DNA from: an uncultured delta proteobacterium
GTDB lineage: Bacteria > Myxococcota_A > Polyangia > Polyangiales > Polyangiaceae
Reading direction: 5' to 3'
DNA length: 64,000 nucleotides
Assembly: GCA_963716725.1 (NCBI GenBank)
Contig: CAVQUB010000004.1
Location: forward strand, 110,277-174,276
Shown: positions 2,509 through 64,000 of the stretch, piece by piece
How positions within the stretch are numbered: position 1 is the stretch's first letter
How the letters are laid out: each line of letters begins with the position of its first letter
Made by a program: the position numbers and the translations under genes
Notes under the pieces: generated by a model
Databases searched by the model: none
Seen by the model: the letters and a program-made list of their open reading frames with translations, nothing else
Told to the model about the DNA's origin: nothing

Positions 2509-2509
2509 G

Positions 2510-2586: not shown

Positions 2587-2599
2587 CACGGGACGCGGC

Positions 2600-3832
2600 G
2601 CCCGACTTCGACAGGCCCATCGTGAGCAACTCGGCTGGGGGCGCATCGATCTGGAGGCGCAGGTACCTCACGACCACCCCGTGCGTGCCATCGCCGCGGT
2701 GATCGACCGCCTGGACCTCTCGAAGCTCTACGCTCGCATCGGCGCACACGACTCGAACCCCGGCGCGCCGGCCATCGACCCCAAGCTCTTGCTCGGCCTG
2801 TGGGTGTACGCCACCAGCGACGGCGAGAACAGCGCTCGGGAGATCCAGCGCCTGACCGAGTTGCACGCCGCCTGTCGGTGGCTGTGCGGCGGGGTGAGGC
2901 TCAACCACCACACGCTCAGCGACTTTCGCAGCCACAACGCCGAGGTGTTCGACGACCTGGTCACGCAGGTGCTGGCCTTGCCCATGAGCCACGACCTGGT
3001 GGACCTCATGCGTGTCGCGCAGGACGGCACGCGCGTACGGGCCAGTGCTGGGGCGAGTTCTTTCGCAAGGGCACCACGCTGGAGGCTCTGCGCCAGGAGG
3101 CTCTTCTCCCATCTGGCCGCGGTCACGGCAGACACCGAGAGCAGCTCACGCCGAGCCGCGGCGCAGAAGCGTGCAGCCCAGGATCGCCTCGACCGGCTCG
3201 ACGCGGCGCTCGCGCAGTTGCCCGGGGCCGCGAAGACCAAAAGCAAGAGCGGCGCCAAGGACCCGACCCCTCGAGTGTCGACGACCAATCCGCAGGCACG
3301 GGTGATGAAAATGGGCGACGGAGGATTCCGGCCCGCCCACAACGTGCAGCTCGCCACGACCGCCGACGACGCGCGGGTCATCGTCGGTGTCGCCGGCACC
3401 CACCGCGGCAGCGACATGGCCGAATCGACTCCGATGCTCGAGCAGATCGAGAAGCGGACTGGCGTCCGGCCACGAGAGCTCCTCGTCGATGGGGGATACG
3501 CGAAGCATGAAGCCATCGACGAAGCAGCCGCGCGCAACGTCACCGTCTACGCTCCGCTGCCCAAGCCCCGCAACGACGACGGCTCTGACCCTCATCGGCC
3601 GAGGGATACCGACAGCTCAGCCGTTGCCGCCTGGAGACACCGCATGGCCACCGACGAGGCCAAGCAGATCTACCGGCAACGGGCCGCGACCGCCGAGTCC
3701 GTCCACGCGGACGCCAAAACGCACCGCGGGCTCGACTCGCTGACCCTGCGGGGACGGGGCAAGGCTCTCGCCAGCGTGACGCTCTTCGCGCTCACGTACG
3801 ACATCCTGCGCGCCATCACGCTCGGCGTCTGA
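2600..3832 (+). mobile_element. IS1182-family transposase (start uncertain; two compensating indels near 3060 and 3105)
   Basis: DHPVR, G.PAIDPKLLLGLWVYA, SAREI, HHTLSDFR, VAQDGTRVRASAG, STTNPQARVMKMGDGGFRP, LLVDGGY, YRQRAATAE motifs. Confidence 0.85.
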
Positions 3833-3978
3833 CCCCTCCACCGCTCCGCCGCGGCCCCGTTTTCCGCGCTCGGCCCACCTGAATCGCGTCGCGCTCCACG
3901 CGCTCCCGCCCTGCGCCTGGGACTCGCCCTCGCTCGATCCCCCGGCGGCGCATGCTCAACCGATTTCTTCTCACCCGC

Positions 3979-5817
3979 TCAGGCCGGGACGGGTCGCCCG
4001 CGCGTCTCGTGATCGTCCAGGCGCTTCTCGATGCCCGCCAAGCCGTTGTTGAGCGACTCGGTGATCATCTGCACCAGCGTCGGCAGGCTGCTCTTGAGCG
4101 CCTCGTAGTAGCGCTGGCGCTCGGTTGAATGGATGATCGCGGGCGGGTGGCCGGCGCGCAGCAAGATGATGTTCATCAGCATGCGCGAGACCTTGCCGCT
4201 GTCGTTGGAGAAGGGGAAGACGCGCACCAGATCGTAGTGGACGCGGGCGGCGATCCGCAGCGGATGCTTGATCTTCTTGGGTTCGGGCCCGTTCAACCAA
4301 TCGACCACCTGACGGACCTTGTAGGCGATCTTGTCGGGCGAAGCGTACTCGTGGAAGTACAGGCGGTGCTGCGGGATGTCCTTCCGGTAACGCAGGTTCT
4401 TGATGTCACCCTCTTCTGGGTGCAGCGTCAGGTAGATCTTCTTCACCGTGTCGACGGTGATGGGCGCACGCTTCTTCTCGCCCAGGTCGCGCACGAGCGC
4501 GAGCGCCAGCCGGTGCCGCCGGATTTCGTCGACCACGGGCTGAAGGCTCGAGTCGGGCACCACGGTCTGTGAAGGATCGGTGGCCGTTCGGAGCTCTTGG
4601 TAGGTGTAGACCACGCCCTCGAGCGCGCTGTCGTGATAGACCCACGACATCTCGAGGCTCTCGGCGTACTCGTTGCGGAAGGCGTCGTCGCACTCCGCCA
4701 GGCGCTTCAGAACCAGAGCGTAGCGGTCCTCCATGGAGGCGGGCGGCGGCTCTTTCGGCGGCGGCGGCGGCGACACGACCGCTGCCGTGGGAGAGGTTCG
4801 AGCGAGCGCGGGTCGCGCCGACTGTGAGCCTTGGCGCGTCGTGCCTGCTTGGTTCGGGATCGCGTCTGGACGATAGACTCGGGTCGTCGACGCCCGCCCG
4901 GCGCCTGCTCGAAGCGCGCGCTTGGTGGCCCGTGCCACCCGTCCCTCGAGGGCGCGTCGGGCGGCTTCGCGGTCCGCCCGGAGGCGCTCCCGCTCGACCT
5001 CTTTGGCCTTGCGATAAACTTCGCGCTCCGCGTCGCGTCGCGCCCGCTCTTCATCTTTGGCGCGCCGCGCCTCTTCCCGGACGCGCTCGCGCTCGGCCTC
5101 GCGCTCCGCGCGCTCGGCCTCCTTCAGGTCGCGCGCGGCTTCCTTCACGCGCTCGCGCTCGGCCTCCCGCGCCTTGCGCTCGGCGTCGCGCTTGGCTGCC
5201 AGGGCCTTCTGCTCGCGAGCACGCTCTTTCTCGCGCTCTTTCCGCTCGCGTTCGCGCTCTTTCTGTTCGCGTTCGCGCTCTTTCTCGCGCTCACGCTTCT
5301 CGCGTTCGCGCTCCTTCTGCGCGAGCGCGCGCTCTTTCTCGCGCTCACGCTTCTCGCGTTCGCGCTCGCGGAGCGCGTTGGCCCGCTCGCGCTCTTTTTC
5401 GCGCAGCGCTCTCGCTCGGTCTTGCTCGCGCTGCCGCTTCGACGGCGGCGGGCGCTTCCCGGCCTTGGCCTTGGGCTTCAGCGTGGCCTTGGCCTTGGGC
5501 TTCAGCGTGGCCTTGGCCTTGGGCTTCGAAATAGCCTTGGGCTTGGGCTTGGGCTTCGAAATAGCCTTGGCTTTGGCTTTGGCTTTGGCCTTGGCCTTCG
5601 GCGTGGCTTTGGGCTTCGGCGTGGCTTTGGGCTTGGCCTTCGGGCGGGTCGTGGGCTTCACTTTGGATTTGGGCTTCGGCTTCGCCGTGGCCTTGGCCTT
5701 GGCCTTCGGCCGCGAGGCCGAAGGTCGCGCCTTGGCCGCCGCGCCCGCCTTCTTTTTTGTAGCGGGGCGGGGTTTCGCAGCGGACTTGTTTGGTTTTTTC
5801 GTTGTACGGGCCGGCAT
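3979..5817 (-). CDS. Fic/Doc-domain protein with histone-H1-like Lys/Ala/Pro N-terminus and E/R/K coiled coil; degenerate Fic motif
   Basis: C-terminal YHDSALEG and HYDLVRVFPFSNDSGKVSRMLMN; PKAKA repeats; (ERE/K)n region. Confidence 0.85.
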   Translation of the reverse strand: MPARTTKKPNKSAAKPRPATKKKAGAAAKARPSASRPKAKAKATAKPKPKSKVKPTTRPKAKPKATPKPKATPKAKAKAKAKAKAISKPKPKPKAISKPKAKATLKPKAKATLKPKAKAGKRPPPSKRQREQDRARALREKERERANALREREREKREREKERALAQKEREREKREREKEREREQKERERERKEREKERAREQKALAAKRDAERKAREAERERVKEAARDLKEAERAEREAERERVREEARRAKDEERARRDAEREVYRKAKEVERERLRADREAARRALEGRVARATKRALRAGAGRASTTRVYRPDAIPNQAGTTRQGSQSARPALARTSPTAAVVSPPPPPKEPPPASMEDRYALVLKRLAECDDAFRNEYAESLEMSWVYHDSALEGVVYTYQELRTATDPSQTVVPDSSLQPVVDEIRRHRLALALVRDLGEKKRAPITVDTVKKIYLTLHPEEGDIKNLRYRKDIPQHRLYFHEYASPDKIAYKVRQVVDWLNGPEPKKIKHPLRIAARVHYDLVRVFPFSNDSGKVSRMLMNIILLRAGHPPAIIHSTERQRYYEALKSSLPTLVQMITESLNNGLAGIEKRLDDHETRGRPVPA

Positions 5818-39505: not shown

Positions 39506-41512
39506 ATGAGTCGCGAGTTCACTGACGGTCAAATCGTCCCCGGCACTCGCTATCGAGTGCGCGGCCACCTGGGCTCCGGGGGCATGGGTTCGGTGTACCT
39601 CGTGGAGCACACCGAGCTGGGCAAAGAGTTCGTGCTCAAGGCCCTGTTTCGCGAGCTCGCCGGACGCAAAGATCTGGTCGCGCGGCTCCGCCAAGAGTGG
39701 CGGTCCCTCGCGCGCCTGAACCACCCGAACATCGTCAACGTCACCGACGCCGGGACCAGCGACAACGGTGCTCCTTTCTACGTGATGGAGCGCGTCGCGG
39801 GCGAGACGCTGGGGCAACTGCTCGAGCGCGAGCACGCGCTCAGCGTGCCGCGGGCCATCGGTATCGCCGCTGCAGTGCTCGACGGGCTCAGCGCCGCCCA
39901 CGAGATCGGCATCGTGCACCGCGACGTCAAACCTCCGAACATCTTCGTGGTGGCCGGCGGCGGGGTGCGCCTGCTCGACTTCGGCGTGGCCAAGCTCGCC
40001 GACCAGAGCGCCGAGGTGATCACCGCGCGGGGAGTCGCCATCGGTACGCCCCGCTACATGTCGCCAGAGCAGGCCCGGGGCCAAGCCGTCGACGCGCGGA
40101 CCGATTTGTACGCCGTCGGCCTGGTGCTCTTCGAGTCCATCGCGGGCGAAGGCCCCTTCGACGCCGCCCGGGACGCCAACGAGCTCCTGATCGCTCACCT
40201 GTCCAAGCCAGTGCCACGACTCTCCAGCTTTCACCGCGGAGTGTCCGCGGAGCTCGACGACATCGTGATGAGCCTGCTCGCGAAAGATCCAAACGCCCGG
40301 CCCAAGACCGCGCGCGACGTCGCGGCGACGCTACGCGGCCTGATCAGGCGCAGCGCGCACCTGCCGTCGATCAGCGGCTCGACTCCCCACGCCGGGTACC
40401 AGGCGCCCACCGTCAACGCGATCACCGCGCTTCCGCCCACGCGACCCGAGGGCGCCGCGCGCAATTCCGAGCCGCCCACGATCAACGCGCCGCTCGGGCT
40501 CGACGGCGTCGCGCGTCGCAATTCCGAGCCGCCCACGATCAACGCGCCGCTCGGGCTCGACGGCGTCGCGGGCCGCAAGTCCGAGTCCCCCACGATCAAC
40601 GCGCCGCTCGGGCTCGACGGCGTCGCGCGTCGCTCGAACCCGCCTCCAGGCGCGACCACGACCGTGATCGGCACCCCAGTGCTCGCCGGCGGCACCACGC
40701 TGTCTGCATCGGCGCCGACGCGACCCGGGATGGACTGGGCGAAGGACGGGTTCCAGACGGTCGCCGCGTCCAGTGACGGCCTGCTCGGAGTCGAAGACAC
40801 CCTGGTCGCATCGGCTCCGCCGTCGGCCATTCAGGCGTTGCCGCTGGGCGCCGATCACACGTTGCCCATCGACAGCCCCGTCGCGCCCGCGCCAAACGAA
40901 GCGCTGACCCGCACCTCCATTCCCGTAGCCGCCCTCGTCCGCCCGCCGTCCGCAGGCTGGTCCACGCCGGACCCGTCGCCGCTGCCCTACGGATTCGTCG
41001 AGACTCCGCCGCCGTTCATGTCGGCGACGCCCGAGCCTCCGGCGCGCGCCGCGGCGGCGAGCCGCCTCCCCTTTGTGCTGGCTGGGCTCGCCATGCTGAT
41101 TTTGGTCGCGGGCGTCGGCGCGTTCTTGTCGCTGCGACCCGCGCCAATCGTTCCCGGCGTCGCGGCGGCTTCGGACGTCGAGGGCATGCCCGCGGCTTCC
41201 ATCCCAGTCGGTCCCGCCGCCGAGCCCGCGCCCACGGCCGCCGAGTCCGCGCCCACGGCCGCCGAGTCCGCGCCCACGGCCGCCGAGTCCGCGCCAAAGG
41301 CCGCTGGGTCCGCGCCCACGGCCGCCGAGTCCGCGCCAAAGGCCGCCGGACCCGCGCCAAAGGCCGCTGGGCCCGTGGCCCCGATCCCGGTCGCACCCGC
41401 TGCCAAGGCCCAGCCGTCGACCCAGAAAATCCAGAAAACCCCGCAAAAACCCCAGGGAAAGCCCGTGGCCAGCAAGCCCACTCCGGCTCAACTCCCCGGT
41501 TCGGGCCTGTGA
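39506..41512 (+). CDS. Membrane Ser/Thr protein kinase
   Basis: GSGGMGSV, HRDVKPPN, DFG, GTPRYMSPE; TM; ends LPGSGL. Confidence 0.95.
   Translation: MSREFTDGQIVPGTRYRVRGHLGSGGMGSVYLVEHTELGKEFVLKALFRELAGRKDLVARLRQEWRSLARLNHPNIVNVTDAGTSDNGAPFYVMERVAGETLGQLLEREHALSVPRAIGIAAAVLDGLSAAHEIGIVHRDVKPPNIFVVAGGGVRLLDFGVAKLADQSAEVITARGVAIGTPRYMSPEQARGQAVDARTDLYAVGLVLFESIAGEGPFDAARDANELLIAHLSKPVPRLSSFHRGVSAELDDIVMSLLAKDPNARPKTARDVAATLRGLIRRSAHLPSISGSTPHAGYQAPTVNAITALPPTRPEGAARNSEPPTINAPLGLDGVARRNSEPPTINAPLGLDGVAGRKSESPTINAPLGLDGVARRSNPPPGATTTVIGTPVLAGGTTLSASAPTRPGMDWAKDGFQTVAASSDGLLGVEDTLVASAPPSAIQALPLGADHTLPIDSPVAPAPNEALTRTSIPVAALVRPPSAGWSTPDPSPLPYGFVETPPPFMSATPEPPARAAAASRLPFVLAGLAMLILVAGVGAFLSLRPAPIVPGVAAASDVEGMPAASIPVGPAAEPAPTAAESAPTAAESAPTAAESAPKAAGSAPTAAESAPKAAGPAPKAAGPVAPIPVAPAAKAQPSTQKIQKTPQKPQGKPVASKPTPAQLPGSGL
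40463..40633 (+). repeat. 3 x 57-bp coding tandem repeat (NSEPPTINAPLGLDGVARR)
   Basis: Directly visible. Confidence 0.9.
41228..41372 (+). repeat. About 7 x 21-bp coding tandem repeat (AP[T/K]AA[E/G][S/P])
   Basis: Directly visible. Confidence 0.85.
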
Positions 41513-46256: not shown

Positions 46257-46479
46257 ACCACGAGCTTGCCGCCGATCCACCACGAGCTTGCCGCCGATCC
46301 ACCACGAGCTTGCCGCCGATCCACCACGAGCTTGCCGCCGATCCACCACGAGCCTGCCGCCGATCCACCACGAGCTTGCCGCCGATCCACCATGAGCTTG
46401 CCCGCCGATCCACCACGAGCTTGCCCGCCGATCCACCACGAGCTTGCCCGCCGATCCACCATGAGCTTGCCGCCGATCC
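46257..46479 (+). repeat. 10 x 22/23-bp tandem array (ACCAYGAGCTTGCC(C)GCCGATCC)
   Basis: Counted directly: seven 22-bp and three 23-bp units, no spacers. Confidence 0.95.
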
Positions 46480-47009: not shown

Positions 47010-47016
47010 GGCGCGC

Positions 47017-47100
47017 CGCCGAGCGGGCAACCGCCGAACGGGCAACCGCCGAGCGGGCAACGGCCGAGCGGGCAACCCCCGAGCGGGCAACCCCCGAGCG
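47017..47100 (+). repeat. About 5.6 x 15-bp tandem repeat (CGCCGAGCGGGCAAC)
   Basis: Directly visible. Confidence 0.9.
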
Positions 47101-47349
47101 TAGTCTTGCTCGGTAGTCGGGCCGGACGCGCGCAAGAAGCGACGCGTTCACGATCACTTACGACTGCGGCGACGGCGCTCGTCCCGCACGCACAATTTCG
47201 CAGGCCTACTTCCGGAATGCCCCCCCGCCGGCGCCGCAGCCCTGAGGGGCCTCGAGCGGAGCCCTTCCCAAGCGTTCGGCGTCGGTTCGGTGCGGCAGGC
47301 GGAAATGGAGCACGGTCGGTGGCACCCGCGCACCGAGGACGCGCTTCGT

Positions 47350-47646
47350 GACGACCCTTGGAAGTCCCTGGCGAGGGACGACCCTTGGAAGTCCCTGGCG
47401 AGGGACGACCCTTGGAAGTCCCTGGCGAGGGACGACCCTTGGAAGTCCCTGGCGAGGGACGACCCTTGGAAGTCCCTGGCGAGGGGCGACCCTTGGAAGT
47501 CCCTGGCGAGGGACGACCCTTGGAAGTCCCTGGCGAGGGGCGACCCTTGGAAGTCCCTGGCGAGGGACGACCCTTGGAAGTCCCTGGCGAGGGGCGACCC
47601 TTGGACGACCCCGGGAAGTACCCGGAGGGGCAAGTCCCCGACGGGG
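47350..47646 (+). repeat. E1 array: 9 x 27-bp units plus a 54-bp structured tail
   Basis: G[A/G]CGACCCTTGGAAGTCCCTGGCGAGG x9; total 297 bp = 11 x 27. Confidence 0.95.
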
Positions 47647-47802
47647 GACACTCGAAGGGGTGAAACGAGCGCTCTCTACTTCGAGGTCCGGCCCTGCGCG
47701 CCCGCGGCCCGGCGCGGAGCATCGCGGAAGCCGCGCCTGCGCGTGATGTCGACGAGCGCAGGCAGGAACCGGAAACCTTCGCTTCACGTGCGCGCTGCCA
47801 CA

Positions 47803-47880
47803 CCCGCGACGCTGCCGCTGCCAAGCCCACCAACGGCAATCCGTGCACGACCCGTTTGTCAGGGGGTGTGCAAGCACCGT
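47803..47880 (-). repeat. ~78-bp element homologous to 2510-2586
   Basis: Manual alignment; ends in GGGGGTGTGCAAGCACCGT, also seen at 970-988. Confidence 0.7.
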
Positions 47881-48525
47881 GGTTCTGGCGCACGCTTCAG
47901 CCGGCTGCGAATCGAAAAGAACGCATCTCGTACGATTTCGACACGTTTCTCGACGCACGACGCACGCGAGTGACGCGTCGTTCGAAACTTGCCGCGTGCG
48001 AGCGCGAGGACGATCCACGACGGCGCTCTGGCTCCCGGATGACTTTCGACGCGTCGAGCTGCGCGTTCGTTGCTCTCGGTGGCAGCTGCGAGGCCGAAAA
48101 TCCTCGTGGTATGCCGGAGACATGTTCGCGCTCGACGCTCTCGAGAACCAGGCTCTCCTCGCGCGTTTGCCCAGCCTTCGGGCTCTCGAACGCGAAGCCA
48201 CCGCCGAGCTCATCGCGTACCTCTGCGAGCTCGACCGCCGCCGCTTGTACACAGCGGTGGCTTGCTCGTCGCTCTCCTCGTATTGCACCGAGCGGCTCGG
48301 CTACTCCGAGAACGAGGCCCAGGTGCGGGTCGGGGTCGCTCGACTTTGCCAGCGTCTGCCCCAGGCCCTCGACGAGCTCCGGAGCGGGCGAATCCACCTG
48401 ACCGGCCTGTTCCTCCTGTCGGGGCGGCTGACCTCGGAGAACGCCGATGCCCTGCTCGCCGAAGCTCGGGGCAAGTCTCGGCGTGACCTCGAGTGTTTGC
48501 TGGCCCGCTGGTTCCACCCCTTCGG

Positions 48526-49992
48526 CTCATGATCAAACACATCTCATTGCGAGCGGACGGCGCGTGTGATCTACGGGAGAAATGCCGGCAACAGAATGGT
48601 TAGGGCGGTCGATTTCGGACGAGTTCGAGGGCTCTCAGCTCGGCGATAAGCGGCGCAGTGACAGGCTCGGTTGGCTCGCTGAGAAACTGATGGCGGCGCC
48701 CGGTGTTGGGTTTCCGCAGGCTGTCGACACTCCGTCCGAGCTTGAGGGAGTCTACCGATTCCTGCGCAACGAGCAGTTCGACGCGGAGCAGATCCTCGAC
48801 CCGCACCTGTCGGCGACGGTGGAGCGTGTGAGTTCCGCTGGCCTGTGTATCGTCGCGCACGATACGACCGAAGTATCGCTCGGCGGCGCCAGTCGGCGAG
48901 CTGGGTTGGGCGTCACGTCCGGCGGCAGCCAGGGGTTTCTCGCACACGTGGCGCTGGCCGTGCTTCCCGGCGAGGAGCGAGTGCCACTCGGAGTTCTGGG
49001 TCTACAGCGACACGTCCGCCTCGTACACAAGGGTGGACGCGGGCGCCGCCGGTCTGTCAGTCGGAGAGACCCCGAGCGCGAATCACTGCGCTGGCCGGCC
49101 ATGCTCGAGGCCGTCCATGCACGCTGCCCCGGCAGCGCGCTCATTCACGTGATGGACCGCGAAGCGGACATTTTCGAGGTCCTGGCGAAGGCGCAGGAAC
49201 TCGGTGCGCGCTACGTCATCCGTTCGGCTCACGACCGAGTAACTGAGGAAATAGGCATCTGCTTGCGCAGTGCAATCTCAACGCTCGAACCGCAGTTTTT
49301 TCGCACGATCTCGGTGTCATCGAGGAAACCGAGCAGTCGCGCGCATGCTGCAAAAGAGCACCCGTCTCGCAACGCCCGGAGCGCGGAGGTCGCCGTGGCA
49401 GGCAAACGTTTGACTGTGCTGCGCCCCCGCAACACTCGACATGAGACGCGCAGCATCGAACTCAACGTGGTTCGAGTCTGGGAACTCCAACCACCAGAAG
49501 GCGAGCCGTCGGTCGAGTGGGTGCTGCTCACTACCGAACCCATTGACACCGTCGCCGAACTCGCGACCGTCGTGGACTGTTACCGCAGTCGGTGGGTGAT
49601 CGAAGAGTTCTTCAAGGCACTCAAGCAAGGGTGTTCTCTCGAGAAACGACAGCTCGAGTCGTATCAGGCACTGAGCAACGCGCTCGCCGTGTTCCTGCCC
49701 ATCGCCTGGCGCCTGTTGCTCATGCGCTCGTTAGCCCGCGTCGCACCCGAGCAACCGGCAACAACGATCCTGAGTGAGCCCCAGTTGCTCCTCATAAAGT
49801 TCAAGCTCCGCCTCCCGGCCGTCCCGCAGACCATTGAGCAAGCGCTATTCGCTGTCGCGCGACTCGGCGGGCATCTGAAGAACAACGGCGCACCCGGGTG
49901 GCAAACGTTAGGACGGGGCTACCAGAAGCTCCTCGACTACGAGATCGGCTTCCGAGCTGCCCGGTCCCAGATGGGATCCGATCAATCATGAG
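48526..49992 (+). mobile_element. Complete IS4-family element, 1467 bp, 8-bp TSD CCCTTCGG
   Basis: Ends CTCATGAT...ATCATGAG; CCCTTCGG at 48518-48525 and 49993-50000. Confidence 0.95.
48582..49991 (+). CDS. IS4-family transposase (IS50/Tn5-like)
   Basis: LGDKRR, YRFLRN, HDTT, MDREAD, YRSRWVIEEFFKALK. Confidence 0.95.
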   Translation: MPATEWLGRSISDEFEGSQLGDKRRSDRLGWLAEKLMAAPGVGFPQAVDTPSELEGVYRFLRNEQFDAEQILDPHLSATVERVSSAGLCIVAHDTTEVSLGGASRRAGLGVTSGGSQGFLAHVALAVLPGEERVPLGVLGLQRHVRLVHKGGRGRRRSVSRRDPERESLRWPAMLEAVHARCPGSALIHVMDREADIFEVLAKAQELGARYVIRSAHDRVTEEIGICLRSAISTLEPQFFRTISVSSRKPSSRAHAAKEHPSRNARSAEVAVAGKRLTVLRPRNTRHETRSIELNVVRVWELQPPEGEPSVEWVLLTTEPIDTVAELATVVDCYRSRWVIEEFFKALKQGCSLEKRQLESYQALSNALAVFLPIAWRLLLMRSLARVAPEQPATTILSEPQLLLIKFKLRLPAVPQTIEQALFAVARLGGHLKNNGAPGWQTLGRGYQKLLDYEIGFRAARSQMGSDQS

Positions 49993-51017
49993 CCCTTCGG
50001 GTGTCACGAAGCGCGTCCAAGGTCGGACGTGCTGCCGAGCGTGACGCCCTTGCCCGGCTGCCCGGCGACCATGCTCGAGCATGGTCCTTCCGCCGCGGCG
50101 CCCGCCGCGTGCACGGAGCCCGAGCCCGCGCCGGCTCCGAAGCCCCGCGTGCAGCCGCTCTCCGCCTCCAGCTACCGGGTCGAATTCACCGCGAGCGCCG
50201 CGCTCCACGACAAGCTCGTGAAGGCCCAGAACCTCCTGGGCCACGCCATCCCCAGCGGGGATCTCGCCGCGCTGTTCGAGCGCGCCATCGAGGCGCTGCT
50301 CGAGGCCGAGACGAAGCGCCGCTTCGGCGCGGGCAAGCCGCGTAAGCGGCGCGCGCTCGAGCCAGGCTCACGGCACATCCCCGTGGAGGTCGCTCGCGTC
50401 GTCTGGGAGCGGGACGGCGGGCAGTGCACTTACCTCGACGACGAGGGGCGGCGCTGCTCGGAGCAGCGCTTCGTCACCCTCGAGCACATCGAGCCGCACG
50501 CGCTCGGCGGTCCGGCCACCGTGGAGAACCTCTGTCTCCTTTGTTCATCGCACAATGCCCTGCGCGCACGACAGGTCTTCGGCGAAGATCAGATCCGGAA
50601 GAAGATCGCTGAAGCGACCGAGAAGAAGCAAGGTCCGGACACGCCGAGGGACGACCCTTGGAAGTCCCTGGCGAGGGGCGACCCTTGGACGACCCTGGGA
50701 AGTGCCCGGAGGGGCAAGTCCCAGAAGTGGGACGAGAGCTCAGAGAAGATCCAGGCCGCGCTGGTACGACTCGGCTTTCGCACGGCGAAGGCTCGCCGCG
50801 CGGTCGAGCAAGCGCGCGCTCGAGGCGTCGAGCCCGGGCTCGAGCCGCTCCTCAGGGCGGCGCTCGCCGAGCTCACCCCCACCGTGTCGCCTGCGCGCTG
50901 CTGAGGGAGCGCGGGTGTCCCCGGAGCCCCTGGTGCAGGCGAAGACCCGACTCGCCGGCGCGGCCTCCCCGACATCGGGCCGTAACAGAAAGGTGCCGGC
51001 GCCAAGAGCGTTACCCG

Positions 51018-51480
51018 CAGACCGTGGTGCGCGTCAAGACGGTGGTCACCGACGAGGCGGGGCGTGTCCTCAGGGCTGAAGACCGCTACCTGATCTCGAG
51101 CCTGCGCAAAGATGCCCTCACCGCGACGCAATGGCAGACGCTCGTGCGCTTGCGCTGGGGCGTGGAAACCAACCACCAGATCCTCGACCACGCCTTAGAT
51201 CATCGACCACGCCTTCGAAGAGGACGACCCTTGGGAGTCCCTGGCGAGGGGCGATCACCCCTGGATCGAGCAGAACCCACGCGGCATGCTCGTCGTCGCG
51301 ATCCTGCGCCGCATCGTCTACACGCTGCTCGCGCTCTTCCGCGGCGTTGCGCAGCGCTCCGACGAGCGGCGCGGCGTCCCTTGGAAGCGCCTGCTCGAAG
51401 AGGTGTACCTCGCGCTGCTCCGCGTCACGGACGAGCTGCTCCGCAGTTTGCGCTTCCGCTCGTTGCCACTCCTGTCGTGA
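51018..51480 (+). pseudogene. ISAs1-family transposase C-terminal remnant
   Basis: RYLISSL, R.RWGVE..HQILD..FEED; broken by a 19-bp tandem duplication (51178-51215); carries an E1 insert. Confidence 0.75.
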
Positions 51481-53288: not shown

Positions 53289-55775
53289 GTGATGGGGAGT
53301 GTGCGGCAGGCTGAAGGCGAGGGACCTCGCGATCCCTTTGCGGTCGGGCAGATCGTCGACGGCCGCTATCGCATCAGCCGCAGGCTGGCCGCGGGCGGCG
53401 TCGGCGTCGTGTACGAAGCCGAGCACTCTTTCACGCGGATGAGGGTCGCGCTCAAGGCCCTGCACAACCGAGCCGGCGATCACCCGGAGCGCATGCAGGC
53501 CGAGGCGCGGACGCTCGCGGAGATGCGTCACCCGAACATCGTGCAGGTGACGGACGGTGGCGTCAGCGACGGCGTGGTCTGGTTCACCATGGAGCTGCTG
53601 CAGGGATCTGCGCTGCGGGAGCTGCTGCACCGCGAGCGAGCGCTCGACCTGCAGCGCGCGCTCTGGTTTGCGCGACAGATCGCCGAGGGCGTGGCGTCAG
53701 CCCATGACCAGGACGTGGTGCACCGCGACCTCAAGCCCGAGAACGTATTCGTCCTGCGCGACGACAGCATCAAGGTCTTGGATTTCGGAACCAGCAAGAT
53801 CACCAACAAGCTCGGTCGATCCGCCGCGCTGAAGACCACGGATCGCTTCCGCCTGATCGGCACCCAAGCGTACATGCCCCCAGAGCGGCTCAAGGCCGAG
53901 CGAGCCGACGCTCGCGCCGACGTGTATGCGCTCGGTCACATCATGTACGAGATGATCGCGGGCCGTCACTGCTGGAGCGACGGTCCAGGTCCGCTCGACC
54001 TGCCCGAGGCCATCGAGCTTGGCATGCGGCAAATCTACGCGCCGCCCGCGCCGCTCGTGGACCAGGTGCCCGGCCTGCCCATCGAGATCGATCGCATGGT
54101 GCAGCGCGCCCTGGCCAAGGATCCGCGGCAGCGCCAGCAGACCATGCGCGAGCTCAGCGTCGAGATCGAGGGCGCCCTCGCGCGCTGTCGTGCGGCACCT
54201 CCGATCGCTCGCCCGGCCTTCGGCCCCAGGGGCGCAGCCTCGGTGGCCACTGACACCGAAGAGACGATGGTGCCGTTCAGCTCGCCGGTCTCGGCGCTGC
54301 AACCGGTCTCGGCGCTGCAACCGGTCTCGGCGCTGCAACCGGTCTCGGCGCTGCAACCGGTCTCGGCGCTGCAACCGGTCTCGGCGCTGCAACCGGTCTC
54401 GGCGCTGCAACCGGTCTCGGCGCTGCAACCGGTCTCGGCGCTGCAGCCGGTCTCATCGAAGCCCGTCGCAGGCATCGACGCGGCGCTGCTGTGTGGCGCC
54501 CTACGATTCGTGAGCGCATCGCCCGAGGCGACGGCGGTCGAACTGGGGTTCATCGCGGTGGCCCAGGCGGACAGTGATCCGACGCTCTGCAGGGAGATCA
54601 CGCGGGCCTGCGCCCAGGGCGATGACCGATCGCGAGGGCCGCTGCGCACCGCGCTCGCGCGCATCGGAGCCGAGCCGCCGGAGGCGCGAGCCCGTCTGAT
54701 CGATCGGCTGCGCGCGTCGGTGTCGAGGGCTGCGCCCTCGGCGAGCCGGGCGAACCAGCCCCGCAGGTCCCGGGCGGAGCTCGCGCTCGGGGCGGCGCTG
54801 CTGCTCGATCCGAGCGCCCGATCGGACGCCGCCGAGTCGGCGCTCAACCGGCTGGGCATTGCGGATCCCGACGTCCAGGCCTTGGCGCTCTCGATCATGA
54901 TCGCGTTCGCGCGCACGCCGCTACCGATGCACCCGGCTCCGCGCGGCGCGCTGCTCGCGCTGTTGCTCGGGGGCGCTGAGGACTCCGAGCTCGCGCGGGC
55001 CGAGCTCGCGACCTTCGTGCTCGACGCGGCGTCGCTCCAAGATCACCTGCCCGCGTCTGCCGCGCCTGCCGCGCCTGCCGCGCCTGCGCAATGGTCGGGT
55101 GAGCAAGCGCGATCCTCGGCCGCACCCGCGCGATCCTCATTTCTGCCGGGCCTGGTCGCGCCTGTCGTGCCCGTCACGGTCGAGCGTGCCCCGGCGCGAC
55201 GGGCCGCGCTGCCGGTGCCCGCGCATGCTGTCGCGGCAGCCTCCACACCCTCGGGTGTTGCGAGTCCGCGACCGTCGAGTTCGCAAGCGCCCGCCACAGC
55301 ACCCGCGGCACTTGCTGCTGCTCCTGCTCCTGCTCCTGCTCCTGCCCCGGTGCGGCTCGGTTGGGTGGTGGCCATCGCCGCGATTTCGGCGGGGGCGGTG
55401 TTGGCCACGGGCGCTCTCGTGCGATCGCGAAGTGGGAGCGGTGACGCGAACGCGCCCGAGATCGGGCCGACGGCGCCGCCTGAGAACAAGGCCGCGCCCA
55501 CGAACGCGACCACGACCCCAGCCACGAACGCGAACACGACCCCGACCGCGACCCCGACCCCGACCCCAGCCGCGACCACGACCTCAACCGGGACCGGGAT
55601 TGCGACGGCGACCCCGATCCGGGCCACGGGCCAACCCCCGTCCACAGCGGCCGGCCCGCCGTCCGCGACCGCGAAGCCCGCAGGTGGTCCGCCGTCGACC
55701 GCGAAGCCCGGGCCCGCGACACCGCCGCACCCCACGCCTCCAGCTCCCCACAAACTCCCTGGATCTGGTCTCTGA
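53289..55775 (+). CDS. Membrane Ser/Thr protein kinase with helical insert; ends LPGSGL
   Basis: VALK, HRDLKPEN, DFG, GTQAYMPPE; TM; Thr/Pro-rich tail. Confidence 0.93.
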   Translation: MMGSVRQAEGEGPRDPFAVGQIVDGRYRISRRLAAGGVGVVYEAEHSFTRMRVALKALHNRAGDHPERMQAEARTLAEMRHPNIVQVTDGGVSDGVVWFTMELLQGSALRELLHRERALDLQRALWFARQIAEGVASAHDQDVVHRDLKPENVFVLRDDSIKVLDFGTSKITNKLGRSAALKTTDRFRLIGTQAYMPPERLKAERADARADVYALGHIMYEMIAGRHCWSDGPGPLDLPEAIELGMRQIYAPPAPLVDQVPGLPIEIDRMVQRALAKDPRQRQQTMRELSVEIEGALARCRAAPPIARPAFGPRGAASVATDTEETMVPFSSPVSALQPVSALQPVSALQPVSALQPVSALQPVSALQPVSALQPVSALQPVSALQPVSSKPVAGIDAALLCGALRFVSASPEATAVELGFIAVAQADSDPTLCREITRACAQGDDRSRGPLRTALARIGAEPPEARARLIDRLRASVSRAAPSASRANQPRRSRAELALGAALLLDPSARSDAAESALNRLGIADPDVQALALSIMIAFARTPLPMHPAPRGALLALLLGGAEDSELARAELATFVLDAASLQDHLPASAAPAAPAAPAQWSGEQARSSAAPARSSFLPGLVAPVVPVTVERAPARRAALPVPAHAVAAASTPSGVASPRPSSSQAPATAPAALAAAPAPAPAPAPVRLGWVVAIAAISAGAVLATGALVRSRSGSGDANAPEIGPTAPPENKAAPTNATTTPATNANTTPTATPTPTPAATTTSTGTGIATATPIRATGQPPSTAAGPPSATAKPAGGPPSTAKPGPATPPHPTPPAPHKLPGSGL
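54285..54446 (+). repeat. 9 x 18-bp coding repeat (PVSALQ)
   Basis: CCGGTCTCGGCGCTGCAA counted directly. Confidence 0.95.
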
Positions 55776-57813: not shown

Positions 57814-59368
57814 ATGCGGAGCTTGATCGTCACTGCGTTGGGCGGAGCTGTGGTCGTGGCCGCCGTGGTCACCGGTTGTGGATCGAGCTCGTGCGAGGAC
57901 ACGGACTCCTGCGGGGCGTACACCGGTGGCACGGGCAACACCGGCGGCAGCGGCGGCAGCGGCGGCGTGAGCGGCAGCGGCGGCGCATCGGGCAGCGGCG
58001 GCACGGGCGGCGCATCGGGCAGCGGCGGCGCATCGGGCAGCGGCGGAGCGGGCGGCACGGGCGGGGACGCGGCGAGCTGCGATCCAACGAAGAGCCCGAG
58101 CGAGGAGGCGTGTCTGGTGAGCGACTCGTACGCGGTGTTCGTTGACGGGACCGCGGCCACGACGGGCACGGGCAGCAAGGCGTCGCCGTACAAGACGATC
58201 GGGGAGGCGCTGCTGCAGAAGAGCGGCAAGCTGATCTTGGTGTGCAACGCGACCTACGACGAGCAGGTCAAGATCACCGCGGGCGTGAAGGTGCACGGCG
58301 GGCTGTCGTGCGCGGACTGGTCGTACGAGGCGGGCAAGCGGGCGGTGGTGAAGCGCACGGCGAAGGGCAGCGCGCTCGAGGTGGAGTCGGTCACCGCGGC
58401 GGTGCTGATCGAGGACATCGAGTTTGCGTCAGCGGACGGCGCGGCGGCGGGTGAGAGCAGCGTGGCAGCGATCGTGAACGCTTCCAGCGACGTGAAGCTG
58501 CGGCGGGTGAAGCTCGCGGCGGGCAAGGGCGTGGCGGGAGCGAACGGCGCGCTGGCGCCGTACACGTATCCCACGCAGGTGGCGTTGAACGGCAATGGAG
58601 CGAGTGGGGGCAGCGGGGGTGCGCCCAAGGCGTGCGCGTGCCCGAGCGGTGCGGGCAGCACGGGTGGGATCGGGGGAGGCGCGCCTGGCCCGCAGGGCGG
58701 CGGCCCCGGGCAGCCCGCGCTCGGCGGGGGCGCAGGGGGAACCCCGGGGAGTCTGCAGCGTCGGCCTCGGCAAGGACGGCGCATCCGCCTCCTCCCCCAC
58801 CGACGGCCTAGGCGCCGCGTCGACGGGCACCCTCACCGCCACCACGTGGCAGCCCGCCTCCGGCAAGGCCGGCGCCGCGGGCGGCCCGGGACAAGGTGGC
58901 GGCGGAGGAGCGTCGACGACGACGGCGGGCGGCGGCGGCGGCGGCTGCGGCGGCTGCGGCGGAGCGGCGGGTCCCGCGGGCGGCGGCGGGGGCGCGAGCC
59001 TCGCGCTCGTCGCGGTGGGCTCGACGGTGAGCATCGAAGGCAAGAGCGAGCTGACGACGAGCGACGCGGGCAACGGAGGCAGCGGCGTCGCGGGACAGGC
59101 GGGGCAGAGCGAGGTGGGGTTCGGGGGGCCATGGCGCTGGGCGCGTGCTCCGGGTGGCAATGGCGGTAACGGCAGCGCTGGCAGCGCTGGTGGCGGCGGC
59201 GCGGGCGGGGTGAGCGTTGCGGTGTTGTGGAAGGGCGCGGCGGCGCCAGTCGTCGACAGCGCGGCGACCGTCAAGCTGGGCAAGCTGGGCACCAAGGGCG
59301 TGGGCGGCAAGGCCGGCAGCAACGACGGCGTGGACGGCGCGTCCGACAAGACCCTCGAGGTGAAGTAG
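57814..59368 (+). CDS. Glycine-rich PGRS-like lipoprotein, copy 1 (frameshift near 58750)
   Basis: VTGC lipobox; GSKASPYKTIGEAL (DUF1565-like); GGGGGCGGCGG. Confidence 0.85.
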
Positions 59369-59370
59369 CG

Positions 59371-61061
59371 ATGCGAGGGCGTGGTGAAGTGACGGTGCAG
59401 GCCCCTCCCGTGGCCGCCGCGAGCGCGACGCGCGTCGCGATGCACGCAGGGGCAGAGCGCGAGCGCGACGCGCTTCGCGATGCCCGAAGGGGCGGACACC
59501 GGGGAGGGGCAGCGCGCAGAGCCGCCTGCAAGGCGGCGAGCACGCTGGGGGTGGGCATCATCGCCTGCTGCTTCGTTGCGTGCTCGGGCGATGACTTCGA
59601 GCCCTCGGGCACCGGTGGCACGGGCAACACCGGCGGCAGCGGCGGCAGCGGTGGCGTGAGCGGCAGCGGCGGCGCATCGGGCAGCGGTGGCACGTCGGGC
59701 AGCGGCGGCGCGTCGGGCAGCGGTGGCGCGTCGGGCGGCGGCGGCACGGGCGGAGACGCGGCGAGCTGCGATCCGACGAAGAGCCCGAGCGAGGAGGCGT
59801 GTCTGGTGAGCGACTCGTACGCGGTGTTCGTTGACGGGACCGCGGCCACGACGGGCACGGGCAGCAAGGCGTCGCCGTACAAGACGATCGGGGAGGCGCT
59901 GCTGCAGAAGAGCGGCAAGCTGATCTTGGTGTGCAACGCGACCTACGACGAGCAGGTCAAGATCACCGCGGGCGTGAAGGTGCACGGCGGGCTGTCGTGC
60001 GCGGACTGGTCGTACGAGGCGGGCAAGCGGGCGGTGGTGAAGCGCACGGCGAAGGGCAGCGCGCTCGAGGTGGAGTCGGTCACCGCGGCGGTGCTGATCG
60101 AGGACATCGAGTTTGCGTCAGCGGACGGCGCGGCGGCGGGTGAGAGCAGCGTGGCAGCGATCGTGAACGCTTCCAGCGACGTGAAGCTGCGGCGGGTGAA
60201 GCTCGCGGCGGGCAAGGGCGTGGCGGGAGCGAACGGCGCGCTGGCGCCGTACACGTATCCCACGCAGGTGGCGTTGAACGGCAATGGAGCGAGTGGGGGC
60301 AGCGGGGGTGCGCCCAAGGCGTGCGCGTGCCCGAGCGGTGCGGGCAGCACGGGTGGGATCGGGGGAGGCGCGCCTGGCCCGCAGGGCGGCGGCCCCGGGC
60401 AGCCCGCGCTCGGCGGGGGCGCAGGGGGCATTGCAGGGCAGGTGTGCGCGGGCGTGGGCTCGGGAGCAAACGGCGCATCGGCCTCCTCCCCCACCGACGG
60501 CCTCGGCGCCGCGTCGACGGGCACCCTCACCGCCACCACGTGGCAGCCCGCCTCCGGCAAGGCCGGAGCCGCGGGCGGACCGGGACAAGGTGGCGGCGGA
60601 GGAGCGTCGACGACGACGGCGGGCGGCGGCGGCGGGGGCTGCGGCGGCTGCGGCGGAGCGGCGGGTCCCGCGGGCGGCGGCGGGGGCGCGAGCCTCGCGC
60701 TCGTCGCGGTGGGCTCGACGGTGAGCATCGAAGGCAAGAGCGAGCTGACGACGAGCGACGCGGGCAACGGAGGCAGCGGCGTCGCGGGACAGGCGGGGCA
60801 GAGCGAGGTGGGGTTCGGGGGAAACCCGCGCCGGGCGCGTGCCCGGGCGGCAGTGGCGGTAACGGCAGCGCTGGCAGCGCTGGTGGCGGCGGCGCGGGCG
60901 GGGTGAGCGTTGCGGTGTTGTGGAAGGGCGCGGCGGCGCCAGTCGTCGACAGCGCGGCGACCGTCAAGCTGGGCAAGCTGGGCACCAAGGGCGTGGGCGG
61001 CAAGGCCGGCAGCAACGACGGCGTGGACGGCGCGTCCGACAAGACCCTCGAGGTGAAGTAG
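59371..61061 (+). CDS. PGRS-like lipoprotein, copy 2 (frameshift near 60830)
   Basis: Near-identical to copy 1 downstream of a different leader ending FVAC. Confidence 0.85.
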
Positions 61062-61063
61062 CG

Positions 61064-62757
61064 ATGCGAGGGCGTGGTGAAGTGACGGTGCAGGCCCCTC
61101 CCGTGGCCGCCGCGAGCGCGACGCGCGTCGCGATGCACGCAGGGGCAGAGCGCGAGCGCGACGCGCTTCGCGATGCCCGAAGGGGCGGACACCGGGGAGG
61201 GGCAGCGCGCAGAGCCGCCTGCAAGGCGGCGAGCACGCTGGGGGTGGGCATCATCGCCTGCTGCTTCGTTGCGTGCTCGGGCGATGACTTCGAGCCCTCG
61301 TACACCGGTGGCACGGGCAACACCGGCGGCAGCGGCGGCAGCGGTGGCGTGAGCGGCAGCGGCGGCGCATCGGGCAGCGGTGGCACGTCGGGCAGCGGCG
61401 GCGCGTCGGGCAGCGGTGGCGCGTCGGGCGGCGGCGGCACGGGCGGAGACGCGGCGAGCTGCAATCCAACGAAGAGCCCGAGCGAGGAGGCGTGTCTGGT
61501 GAGCGACTCGTACGCGGTGTTCGTTGACGGGACCGCGGCCACGACGGGCACGGGCAGCAAGGCGTCGCCGTACAAGACGATCGGGGAGGCGCTGCTGCAG
61601 AAGAGCGGCAAGCTGATCTTGGTGTGCAACGCGACCTACGACGAGCAGGTCAAGATCACCGCGGGCGTGAAGGTGCACGGCGGGCGGTCGTGCGCGGACT
61701 GGTCGTACGAGGCGGGCAAGCGGGCGGTGGTGAAGCGCACGGCGAAGGGCAGCGCGCTCGAGGTGGAGTCGGTCACCGCGGCGGTGCTGATCGAGGACAT
61801 CGAGTTTGCGTCAGCGGACGGCGCGGCGGCGGGTGAGAGCAGCGTGGCAGCGATCGTGAACGCTTCCAGCGACGTGAAGCTGCGGCGGGTGAAGCTCGCG
61901 GCGGGCAAGGGCGTGGCGGGAGCGAACGGCGCGCTGGCGCCGTACACGTATCCCACGCAGGTGGCGTTGAACGGCAATGGAGCGAGTGGGGGCAGCGGGG
62001 GTGCGCACCAAGGCGTGCGCGTGCCCGAGCGGGGCGGGCAGCACGGGTGGCGTGGGAGGAAGCGCGGCCGAACCAAGGGCGGCGGCTCCGGCCTGCCCGC
62101 GCTCGGCGGAGGCGCGGGGGGCCTGGCAGGGCAGGACTGCGGCTCGGGCGGCACGGGAGCGAACGGCGCCTCCGCCTCCTCCCTCGCCGACGGCCTCGGC
62201 GCGGCGTCGACCGGCACCCTCGCCGCGACCACGTGGCAGCCCGCCTCCGGCAAGGCCGGCGCCGCGGGCGGCCCGGGACAAGGTGGCGGCGGAGGAGCGT
62301 CGACGACGACGGCGGGCGGCGGCGGCGGGGGCTGCGGCGGCTGCGGCGGAGCGGCGGGTCCCGCGGGCGGCGGCGGGGGCGCGAGCCTCGCGCTCGTCGC
62401 GGTGGGCTCGACGGTGAGCATCGAAGGCAAGAGCGAGCTGACGACGAGCGACGCGGGCAACGGAGGCAGCGGCGTCGCGGGACAGGCGGGGCAGAGCGAG
62501 GTGGGGTTCGGGGGGCTTCAAGCGCGCCGGGCGCGTGCTCCGGTGGCAATGGCGGTAACGGCAGCGCTGGCAGCGCTGGTGGCGGGGGCGCGGGCGGGGT
62601 GAGCGTCGCGGTGGTGTGGAAGGGCGCGGCGGCGCCAGTCGTCGACAGCGCGGCGACCGTCACGCTCGGCAAGCTGGGCACCAAGGGCGTGGGCGGCAAG
62701 GCCGGCAGCAACGACGGCGTGGGCGGCGCGTCCGACAAGACGCTCGAGGTGAAGTAG
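61064..62757 (+). CDS. PGRS-like lipoprotein, copy 3 (indels near 62008, 62070 and 62525)
   Basis: Tandem copy; period 1693-1696 bp. Confidence 0.85.
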
Positions 62758-62759
62758 CG

Positions 62760-64000
62760 ATGCGAGGGCGTGGTGAAGTGACGGTGCAGGCCCCTCCCGT
62801 GGCCGCCGCGAGCGCGACGCGCGTCGCGATGCACGCAGGGGCAGAGCGCGAGCGCGACGCGCTTCGCGATGCCCGAAGGGGCGGACACCGGGGAGGGGCA
62901 GCGCGCAGAGCCGCCTGCAAGGCGGCGAGCACGCTGGGGGTGGGCATCATCGCCTGCTGCTTCGTTGCGTGCTCGGGCGATGGCTCGAGCCCTCGGGCAC
63001 CGGTGGCACGGGCAACACCGGCGGCAGCGGCGGCAGCGGTGGCGTGAGCGGCAGCGGCGGCGCATCGGGCAGCGGTGGCACGTCGGGCAGCGGCGGCGCG
63101 TCGGGCAGCGGTGGCGCGTCGGGCGGCGGCGGCACGGGCGGAGACGCGGCGAGCTGCAATCCGACGAAGAGCCCGAGCGAGGAGGCGTGTCTGGTGAGCG
63201 ACTCGTACGCGGTGTTCGTTGACGGGACCGCGGCCACGACGGGCACGGGCAGCAAGGCGTCGCCGTACAAGACGATCGGGGAGGCGCTGCTGCAGAAGAG
63301 CGGCAAGCTGATCTTGGTGTGCAACGCGACCTACGACGAGCAGGTCAGATCACCGCGGGCGTGAAGGTGCACGGCGGGCGGTCGTGCGCGGACTGGTCGT
63401 ACGAGGCGGGCAAGCGGGCGGTGGTGAAGCGCACGGCGAAGGGCAGCGCGCTCGAGGTGGAGTCGGTCACCGCGGCGGTGCTGATCGAGGACATCGAGTT
63501 TGCGTCAGCGGACGGCGCGGCGGCGGGTGAGAGCAGCGTGGCAGCGATCGTGGACGCCCCAGCGACGTGAAGCTGCGGCGGGTGAGGCTCGCGGCGGGCA
63601 AGGGCGTGGCGGGAGCGAACGGCGCGCTGGCGCCGTACACGTATCCCACGCAGGTGGCGTTGAACGGCAATGGAGCGAGTGGGGGCAGCGGGGGTGCGCC
63701 CAAGGCGTGCGCGTGCCCGAGCGGTGCGGGCAGCACGGGTGGGGAATAGGGGGAGGCGCGCCTGGCCCGCAGGGCGGCGGCCCCGGGCAGCCCGCGCTCG
63801 GCGGGGGCGCAGGGGGCATTGCAGGGCAGGTGTGCGCGGGCGTGGGCTCGCGGAGCAAACGGCGCATCGGCCTCCTCCCCCACCGACGGCCTCGGCGCCG
63901 CGTCGACGGGCACCCTCACCGCCACCACGTGGCAGCCCGCCCTCCGGCAAGGCCGGAGCCGCGGGCGGACCGGGACAAGGTGGCGGCGGAGGAGCGTCGA
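62760..64000 (+). CDS. PGRS-like lipoprotein, copy 4 (partial, several indels)
   Basis: Tandem copy running off the window end. Confidence 0.8.

Follow-up and report, generated by a model that had tools for sequence, protein, structure and literature searches.

The window analyzed here is a 64,000-nt stretch of one contig from the genome of an uncultured member of the Polyangiaceae. At positions 47350–47646 it contains a tandem array of a 27-nt hairpin unit, designated E27, which is followed by a 54-nt tail-type composite, designated E54, and is nested in a second 27-nt element, LR27. The array is ~480 bp upstream of an HNH-motif gene (copy 2). The original prediction, made from the window, had described the unit as a mobile micro-element present at four sites: the 297-nt array, an insert at 50650–50730, a single unit near 51228 and a piece at 938–958. 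All four are confirmed. The E27 part of the array is reported by Tandem Repeats Finder as 9.5 copies with a 97% match, and a match to E27 arose in none of 100 dinucleotide shuffles. E54 consists of a truncated leader, then a leader, then two small hairpins, T[A/G]CCC-GGAG-GGG[T/C]A and GTCCCC-GACG-GGGGAC, the second of which ends at 47649. G variants occur at alternate units toward the 3′ end of the array and give it a 54-nt periodicity; with the tail, which starts with GGC, the 3′ part comprises three 54-nt GAC/GGC double units. This arrangement suggests that the array grew by duplication of 54-nt double-unit blocks. The segment of ~520 bp that carries the array is missing in two paralogues on contig 15 and is present on contig 6, where the corresponding locus (C6:145321–145401; positions outside the window are given as contig and position) carries 3 units whose loop is of another variant.

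Read in its natural phase, which the empty sites described below establish, the unit is GACCCTKGGAA + GTCCCN-GNNG-N′GGGAC and comprises a leader of 11 nt and a terminal hairpin of 16 nt with a 6-bp stem and a 4-nt loop. The 5′ half is nearly invariant. In the assembly (7.9 Mb in 35 contigs, 84% complete), a search with a 16-nt core and up to 2 mismatches found 104 matches in 68 clusters, in keeping with the predicted discrete and dispersed hairpin unit. For 45 of the 68 clusters the surrounding DNA, mostly IS91-family, rve, ISAs1-like and HNH-bearing insertion sequence (IS) elements, has a collinear paralogue at another place in the genome, and filled sites were compared with paralogues lacking the insert by pairwise global alignment. 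The gap measured exactly 27 nt for each of the 12 single-unit sites (in one case split by the aligner into 18 + 9) and exactly 54 nt for the 3 sites with E54-type composites that have empty paralogues. Two further gaps were not counted: an extra 12-nt gap at site s4, due to a neighboring unit at the edge of the flank, and a second 27-nt gap at site s7, located in a flank of poor homology. Of the 12 single-unit sites, eight or nine fall in one lineage of IS91-family transposases. All 12 units follow TAC, GAC or CAC, in either orientation, and single units end in GAC or, rarely, in GAT, GAG, GGC or GCC; therefore only AC recurs at both junctions. E27 has no terminal inverted repeats.

The unit is missing from orthologous as well as paralogous empty sites. 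An rve-type gene contains exactly 54 nt, comprising LR27 with E27 after an internal GAC, that is missing in three homologues from two sister species; a PMT_2 glycosyltransferase gene has gained 81 nt immediately after its ATGAC start, missing in two sister species; and the end of a pseudouridine-synthase gene has an element-bearing stretch that is also missing in two sister species. The copies are thus neither confined to the region around the window, with no empty orthologs, nor ancestral coding sequence conserved in homologs. One IS91 copy retains a 599-residue open frame (Zn_Tnp_IS91 + Y2_Tnp) through five E27 inserts, three in one orientation and two in the other, which are read in different frames and add unrelated peptides. 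The open frames noted in the original prediction are therefore real, and their preservation follows from the length of the unit: a 27-nt insert amounts to nine codons, so that a copy within a gene does not close the frame and can be retained there. Frame preservation explains survival within genes and need not be an adaptation. The absence of stop codons in all six frames, which had been noted for the array, was rejected as an adaptation, since 49% of random 27-mers from this genome are equally stop-free and a stop is found in at least one frame of 9 of the 26 distinct unit variants. At two sites, C1:147992 and C11:21578, units contain one and two additional copies of the 8-mer CTGGCGAG, which shift the frame. 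Because these are the 8 nt that the IS4-family element described below duplicates, they are probably footprints of IS excision or products of slippage. Contigs from four independent metagenome runs show IS-abutted forms, the C11-type variant and the empty form, all of which could be paralogues within this genome; they were therefore not counted as population polymorphism.

The hairpin was evaluated by covariation in two sets of copies. The first comprises 70 flank-distinct instances from this genome and its congeners, collected with a pattern that fixed only the CC/GG core of the stem. The loop-closing pair is C:G in 39, T:A in 23, A:T in 6 and G:C in 1, with 1 unpaired, and the second variable pair is C:G in 54, G:C in 8 and A:T in 6, with 2 unpaired; the observed pairing rate at either position was matched by none of 5000 shuffles. 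The loops are mostly GNNG. The second set comprises 49 distinct 30-mers from the window, the congeners and the other genomes (at least 19 genomes), with non-canonical and IS-interrupted rows retained. Here 81% of the cells are paired, as compared with 72% in shuffles and 32–62% in slid registers, and the covariation score is 0.280 versus 0.126 in shuffles, a value reached by none of 500. Relatedness among copies inflates both tests. The hairpin is nevertheless real, as it is difficult to see how else a single position could show four pair types in several genomes. The same IS91 site in two species carries different loop variants, each with compensatory stems. The 21 cells with G-T wobbles fit folding of the strand as written and not of its complement. 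Single-strand folding of pieces of the window gave mostly weak z-scores (−1 to −1.6), with the exception of 50638–50740 (z = −4.3), so that the case for the hairpin is founded on covariation and not on energy.

Beyond this genome, the core is present in 5 of the 6 other genomes of the genus (3–13 copies each) and was found in none of 24 sampled genomes from other genera of the family and order. The exact 19-mer occurs in 6 of 401 evenly sampled genomes of the phylum, namely this genome (56 copies), a member of another family of the same class (29), two congeners (11 and 4) and two genomes with single copies. In the species collection at least 105 stretches contain it. Among the matches listed, the labels include Kofleriaceae, Myxococcales, Deltaproteobacteria and Polyangiaceae together with Gammaproteobacteria (4 metagenome-assembled genomes, MAGs), Natronospirales, Bacillota (2), Fibrobacteres, Chitinivibrionales and Phycisphaerales, and several of the listed copies outside this genome have flanks of 55–62% G+C. 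At least one record, that labeled Phycisphaerales, has the IS91 arrangement seen in a Polyangiaceae MAG and is possibly mis-binned. Five other E27-rich genomes, which include MAGs labeled Kofleriaceae, Deltaproteobacteria, Natronospirales and Gammaproteobacteria, contain 108, 28, 73, 96 and 11 copies at up to 1 mismatch, and a reversed-pattern control gave 0. Each lineage has its own dominant loop variant, and the stem is always compensated. A scan of 2.9 million viral contigs produced no matching stretch, and there was no match among the PLSDB plasmids, so that neither set yielded a vector.

Twelve arrays of two or more exact units were found outside this genome (the array-bearing stretches include L200 and L209, from the same MAG, and L203, L205, L208 and L210), and their flanks encode ordinary proteins. 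In a gene of the inositol monophosphatase family, E27 units are located at about profile position 150 with both halves of the gene in frame. The other hosts include genes for MurB, the F protein of the type II secretion system, an ABC-2 permease, a glutathione S-transferase and an RF-1 domain protein, among others; in the MurB, ABC-2 and transferase frames the arrays are in N-terminal regions, and another array is in an SpvB/TcdB-like frame. The frame that gives DDPWKS is the one used in several other genomes, and many copies are at contig ends. In sister species (stretches L074–L082 and L044–L055), the unit is found within larger multi-copy repeats, in which the mix of small hairpin modules after GGAAGT differs from copy to copy; copy L080 has none.

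The features in the window are listed below.

Table. E27, E54, LR27 and associated insertion sequence features in the window
Feature	Positions	Strand	Remarks
Right part of E27 unit	938–958	+	Split by IS4-family IS ending at 937; 938–945 is the target CTGGCGAG
LR27 left arm	47338–47352	+	GACGCGCTTCGTGAC; LR27 is GACGCGCTTCGYGAC; array nested directly after the terminal GAC
Nine tandem E27 units	47350–47592	+	7 exact, 2 (units 6 and 8) with A>G at unit position 2
E54 composite tail	47593–47646	+	Brings the array to 297 nt
LR27 right-arm hairpin	47650–47661	+	ACTC-GAAG-GGGT
LR27 piece in HNH copy 2	48516–48525	−	In frame; split by IS at 48526–49992
IS4-family IS (Tnp_DNA_bind + DDE_Tnp_1)	48526–49992	+	Inserted in the LR27 hairpin; 8-bp target CCCTTCGG duplicated
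Other piece of the same LR27	50001–50017	−	49993–50000 repeats the 8-bp target CCCTTCGG of 48518–48525
E27 + E54 in C-terminal region of HNH copy 2	50650–50730	+	81 nt, frame kept; E27 unit exact
Single E27	51223–51249	+	1 mismatch; in a remnant resembling the transposase named ISAs1 in the original prediction

HNH copy 1 (955–2508) is part of an IS-like repeat of 3.45 kb that also bears a DUF772/DDE_Tnp_1 transposase gene and has imperfect terminal inverted repeats (TCAGAGCCTGTGAAAGAATC...). Eight copies of this repeat, with 83–99.7% identity, are present in the genome, including positions 1–3981 of the window and C2:193514–196965. Every copy has an E27 array ~275 bp from its left end, and the number of units in these near-identical loci varies (2, 2, 4, 5, 6 or 7). 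Because the arrays sit inside the repeat, most of those copies spread by hitch-hiking. The array in the copy at the start of the window comprises one unit only, interrupted by an IS4-family element, and this interruption explains what had been described as a partial unit: the piece in the window is half of a unit whose left part is at C4:109705–109731, just upstream, with a duplication of the 8-bp target. HNH copy 2 (47843–48532 and 50029–50904) is likewise split by an IS4-family element. Its 81-nt insert is bounded by GGGACGA and matches the end of the array with 94% identity over 89 nt. The empty form of this site is seen in a contig of metagenome run X1, which is probably one of the genome's paralogues. 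Relative to copy 2, HNH copy 1 contains a 29-residue insertion in the region of the HNH motif (~2056–2155) that is not of the E27 type.

The single unit that had been placed at 51228–51254 is also present; the placement used in the table is equivalent because CGA repeats. The empty paralogue of this site, C32:149061, reads F-A-E-D-D-H-P-W, and the gap between the two is exactly 27 nt. No Pfam family matched the remnant in which the unit is located. Other near-perfect tandem repeats, with sequences unrelated to E27, lie within 10 kb of the array: 40456–40633 (57 nt × 3.1), 41216–41375 (21 nt × 7.2), 46257–46479 (22 nt × 10), 47016–47100 (15 nt × 5.7) and 54285–54454 (18 nt × 9.4). From ~58400 to 63200 one set of tandem-repeat rows appears three times with a spacing of ~1.69 kb, a pattern suggestive of a glycine-rich gene repeated three times in tandem.

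LR27, GACGCGCTTCGYGAY followed by ACCC-GAAG-GGGT, is represented in this genome by 18 plain copies and 11 with a nested E27; the loci C8:201507 and C8:408623 differ by a 27-nt gap that corresponds to an E27 nested in LR27. The in-frame LR27 of HNH copy 2 adds 9 residues relative to copy 1. Some LR27 copies belong to a repeat of ~100 bp with CCCACCCC/GGGGTGGG arms. The IS4-family element, which has the terminal repeat CTCAYGAT... and duplicates 8 bp of the form CYGNNGRG, enters the 3′ arm of E27 and LR27 hairpins almost exclusively. Of 23 IS ends found by the terminal-repeat pattern, 15 abut CCC-GNNG-GGG hairpins by regular expression and 22 by eye, because the ends that were not flagged adjoin the opposite arm of the hairpin. 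This preference is evidence for the hairpin that is separate from the covariation. Junctions of this type also occur in the sister species and as loose ends in other metagenome runs. At C1:162267–162291 a 25-nt piece that consists of two fused tips of the IS4-family element sits in a hairpin target.

A gene that might mobilize E27 was sought among several candidates. Two Y1_Tnp genes are present in this genome, and a scan for the E27 motif found none at either locus. The one examined in full (L041) is flanked by a 66-nt inverted repeat (1378–1443 and 2102–2167 of that locus) with two hairpins that differ from that of E27, and is a RAYT-like (REP-associated tyrosine transposase; REP, repetitive extragenic palindrome) or IS200-like unit with its own, different repeats. 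IS91-type genes are present in the genome, and no other target is as heavily invaded. A Y1_Tnp or an IS91-like gene is present in each of the 6 genomes examined, and Y1_Tnp matches also occur in 6 of 14 control genomes. In the loci that were compared, no physical or sequence link between E27 and HUH genes was found, and a RAYT or IS200 transposase is not supported as the mobilizer, since no link to E27 was found. The suggestion that the neighboring HNH protein mobilizes the unit is likewise not supported. With HNH copy 1 as the query, no relative was found at E ≤ 1e-5 in any of the five other genomes with 11–108 copies, and the 12 arrays outside this genome are in ordinary chromosomal genes, although HNH matches as weak as the window's own (E ~2e-4) would fall outside the 1e-6 limit of that listing. 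Apart from this link and the argument from six frames, the original prediction was largely right, and the phenomenon is broader than it had supposed.

E27 is probably a discrete, non-autonomous insertion element of exactly 27 nt that is moved on one folded strand by a sequence-specific enzyme acting in trans. The invariant leader, the covarying top of the hairpin, the lack of inverted ends, a repeat of no more than 2 nt and the patchy distribution together point to an enzymatic mechanism on single strands. In such a mechanism, the enzyme would recognize the leader and hairpin of one folded strand and would insert whole units 3′ of [G/C/T]AC, with AC regenerated at the 3′ end of the element itself, and its mode of working would resemble that of the HUH single-strand or rolling-circle transposases (IS200/IS605, IS91 and Helitron). 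Re-initiation, or slippage at a later time, would produce the arrays. Head-to-tail arrays and the nesting of E27 in LR27 would both be expected, since a unit carries at its end the sequence after which it inserts. Such multimers and nesting, together with a conserved stem base and adjacent leader below a covarying hairpin top, are what HUH single-strand or rolling-circle transposition gives rise to, and a sequence-specific enzyme that acts in trans on one folded strand seems the most likely agent. Horizontal spread of E27 with amplification in a few genomes would fit the data, and we infer that many of the copies in this genome multiplied passively inside IS elements.

Several observations weigh against an element of this kind. 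No mobilizing gene was found among the candidates (Y1_Tnp, IS91-like and HNH); only 2 of the 5 other E27-rich genomes have Y1_Tnp and 3 of 5 have IS91-like genes, and the ends of IS91 show no E27-like hairpin. There is no replication-strand bias (15 versus 14 for LR27 and 32 versus 22 for E27, the copies being non-independent). The site in HNH copy 2 is a replacement and not a clean addition: 81 nt take the place of 6 nt in the paralogues C15:432.9k, C15:530.3k and C6:143.7k (net +75), and in a fourth paralogue, C11:22415, 27 nt replace 6 (net +21). The three 54-nt composites do not all follow AC. The apparent invariance of the 19-mer is partly an effect of ascertainment because exact matches were searched, and a GGAAATCCC subfamily appears when one mismatch is allowed. 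All of the genomes concerned are MAGs, whose taxonomic labels and binning were taken as recorded.

The failure to find an enzyme would be accounted for if the units were copied by polymerase template switching or slippage with no enzyme of their own, and arrays grew by ordinary slippage. A nascent strand ending in ...GAC would leave its template, pair at the GAC of another E27, copy it, stall at the hairpin (...GGGAC) and return, with the result that one unit is inserted between stretches of the microhomology. Such a route is consistent with the 2–3 nt of identity between target and unit end at every single-unit site and with the 5–12 nt that some targets share with the junction of tandem units (ACGACC at C12:54828, GGACGACC at the ISAs1-like site and GACGCCCCTTGGA at the HNH-IS site), and the 54-nt double-unit periodicity of the array in the window is typical of slippage. 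We regard it as unlikely, however, since it does not predict a fixed phase and length at 12 of 12 sites, a common leader with a compensated hairpin top in distant lineages, or 11–108 copies in scattered genomes when 395 of 401 sampled relatives have none. The same compensation, and G-T wobbles that favor one strand, would also be expected of a selected cis-acting RNA or DNA signal (riboswitch-like, terminator-like or a protein-binding hairpin) that is kept for its function. Arrays are located upstream of HNH genes, and tandem junctions form AGGG-ACGA-CCCT hairpins that score 30.4 bits with the Rfam Guanidine-II riboswitch model (RF01068; E 0.0033 in a 6-kb search). This score is, however, below the gathering cut-off of 32 bits and is obtained only from junctions of tandem units, and single units lack the ACGA hairpin; Guanidine-II was rejected on these grounds. 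A cis-acting role is very improbable more generally, because the units occur in both orientations in coding sequence, in transposase genes and at gene starts and ends, have no common neighbor, and are missing from empty paralogues and orthologues, which means that the host genes exist without them. It is harder still to credit that the repeat is selected at the level of protein, as a DDPWKS... peptide module, or that it is an artefact of assembly. The DDPWKS frame recurs in several other genomes and many copies are at contig ends, but in this genome all frames and both strands are used, giving unrelated peptides, and the same forms are seen again in many separate assemblies and in contigs from four independent metagenome runs.

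If a 27-nt sequence does move by a dedicated mechanism, it would set a lower limit to the size of mobile DNA. A more far-reaching version of the insertion-element reading is that E27 and LR27, as single-strand elements of 27 nt, are the smallest transposable units so far seen outside cyanobacteria. An HUH-type or a novel nicking enzyme with sequence specificity would copy them by way of a tiny circular or hairpin intermediate and place single units and rolling-circle-like arrays after 5′-NAC; the elements would have crossed between phyla and, being nine codons long, would decorate working proteins, among them housekeeping enzymes, with variable peptides. We put this forward tentatively and consider it doubtful. 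Given a dedicated mechanism, the dozens of pairs of filled and empty sites, the fixed phase and the defined target would make E27 a clean system in which to find the enzyme, and the means by which such elements are mobilized has been an open question since the small dispersed repeats (SDRs) of cyanobacteria and the Rickettsia palindromic elements (RPEs) were described. Through E27, genes, including those of conserved enzymes in other genomes, gain in-frame modules of nine residues and variable repeat tracts. The element also creates hot spots for the IS4-family IS, breaks short-read assemblies, as indicated by the many copies at contig ends, and offers a ready marker with which to trace horizontal exchange between bacteria, both uncultured Myxococcota and unrelated groups.

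Searches of the main texts of the full-text literature by motif, by peptide and for myxobacterial REP-like or intragenic hairpin elements returned no description of E27; motif and peptide matched nothing but primer lists with no relation to it. IS200/IS605, IS91 and Helitrons have no terminal inverted repeats or real target duplication and insert 3′ of a short sequence. Single-strand and rolling-circle transposons have a hairpin at or near the 3′ end and yield tandem multimers as a by-product. E27 differs from HUH transposons in that it encodes nothing and is 20–100 times smaller, so that it can be said to work like them and not to belong to them. A plain minisatellite (variable number tandem repeat) was rejected in view of at least 12 unrelated single-unit sites with empty counterparts, despite the variation from 2 to 7 copies at the HNH-IS locus. 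Miniature inverted-repeat transposable elements have terminal inverted repeats of ~15–30 bp and a target duplication of fixed length (PMC3733652). E27 was not assigned to this class, because its ends, GAC...GAC, are in direct orientation and only AC recurs at its junctions.

REPs are short hairpin repeats, some of them intragenic, that are targets of ISs, and the CGTC group has no known dedicated transposase (PMC3733652). In the tagged REPs described there, a GTAG or CGTC tag directly precedes a stem of 8–9 bp with a loop of 4–5 nt and a CCA tail, and CGTC REPs have A/T at the first positions of the stem (PMC3733652). E27 resembles REPs in being a short hairpin, in having some intragenic copies and in serving as a target for an IS. 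Its 5′ GACG is CGTC on the other strand, but 11 conserved bases precede a 6-bp G/C stem, and there is no GTAG. Whereas bacterial interspersed mosaic elements (BIMEs) are mostly extragenic and form inverted pairs, E27 arrays run head to tail, and many copies are located in open frames with Pfam domains. Membership in the REP/RAYT system was rejected in view of the Y1_Tnp loci without E27 and the distribution of Y1_Tnp among the E27-rich genomes given above. The analogy drawn in the original prediction is sound for insertion in frame, as in RPEs, and does not extend to REP/RAYT or BIME elements.

RPEs are palindrome-bearing repeats inserted in frame into open reading frames whose protein products are probably still made (PMC3733652). 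E27 is similarly in frame in genes, as in the IS91 frame, the start of the PMT_2 gene, the C terminus of the HNH protein and the rve gene. RPEs are ~100–150 bp in length and form families RPE-1 to RPE-8, which are not known outside Rickettsiales. E27, at 27 nt, with tandem arrays and several lineages, lies outside this range of length and these families. The cyanobacterial SDRs 1–8 of Elhai et al. (2008, Genome Res 18:1484) are reportedly 21–27 nt long with a common hairpin that has compensatory changes, are said to nest in related elements and in transposons, and likewise have no known mobilizing mechanism. E27 is like them in its length of 27 nt, its compensated hairpin and its nested insertion (11 nested as compared with 18 plain copies of LR27). 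It differs in its occurrence in uncultured Myxococcota and scattered MAGs, in its strict quantum of 27 nt, in its arrays and in its frequent residence in frame, and to our knowledge its sequence is unrelated to the SDRs, with which it was compared by description only. The best reading is that E27 is closest to the cyanobacterial SDRs, the RPEs and the REPs and belongs with the miniature, non-autonomous hairpin repeats.

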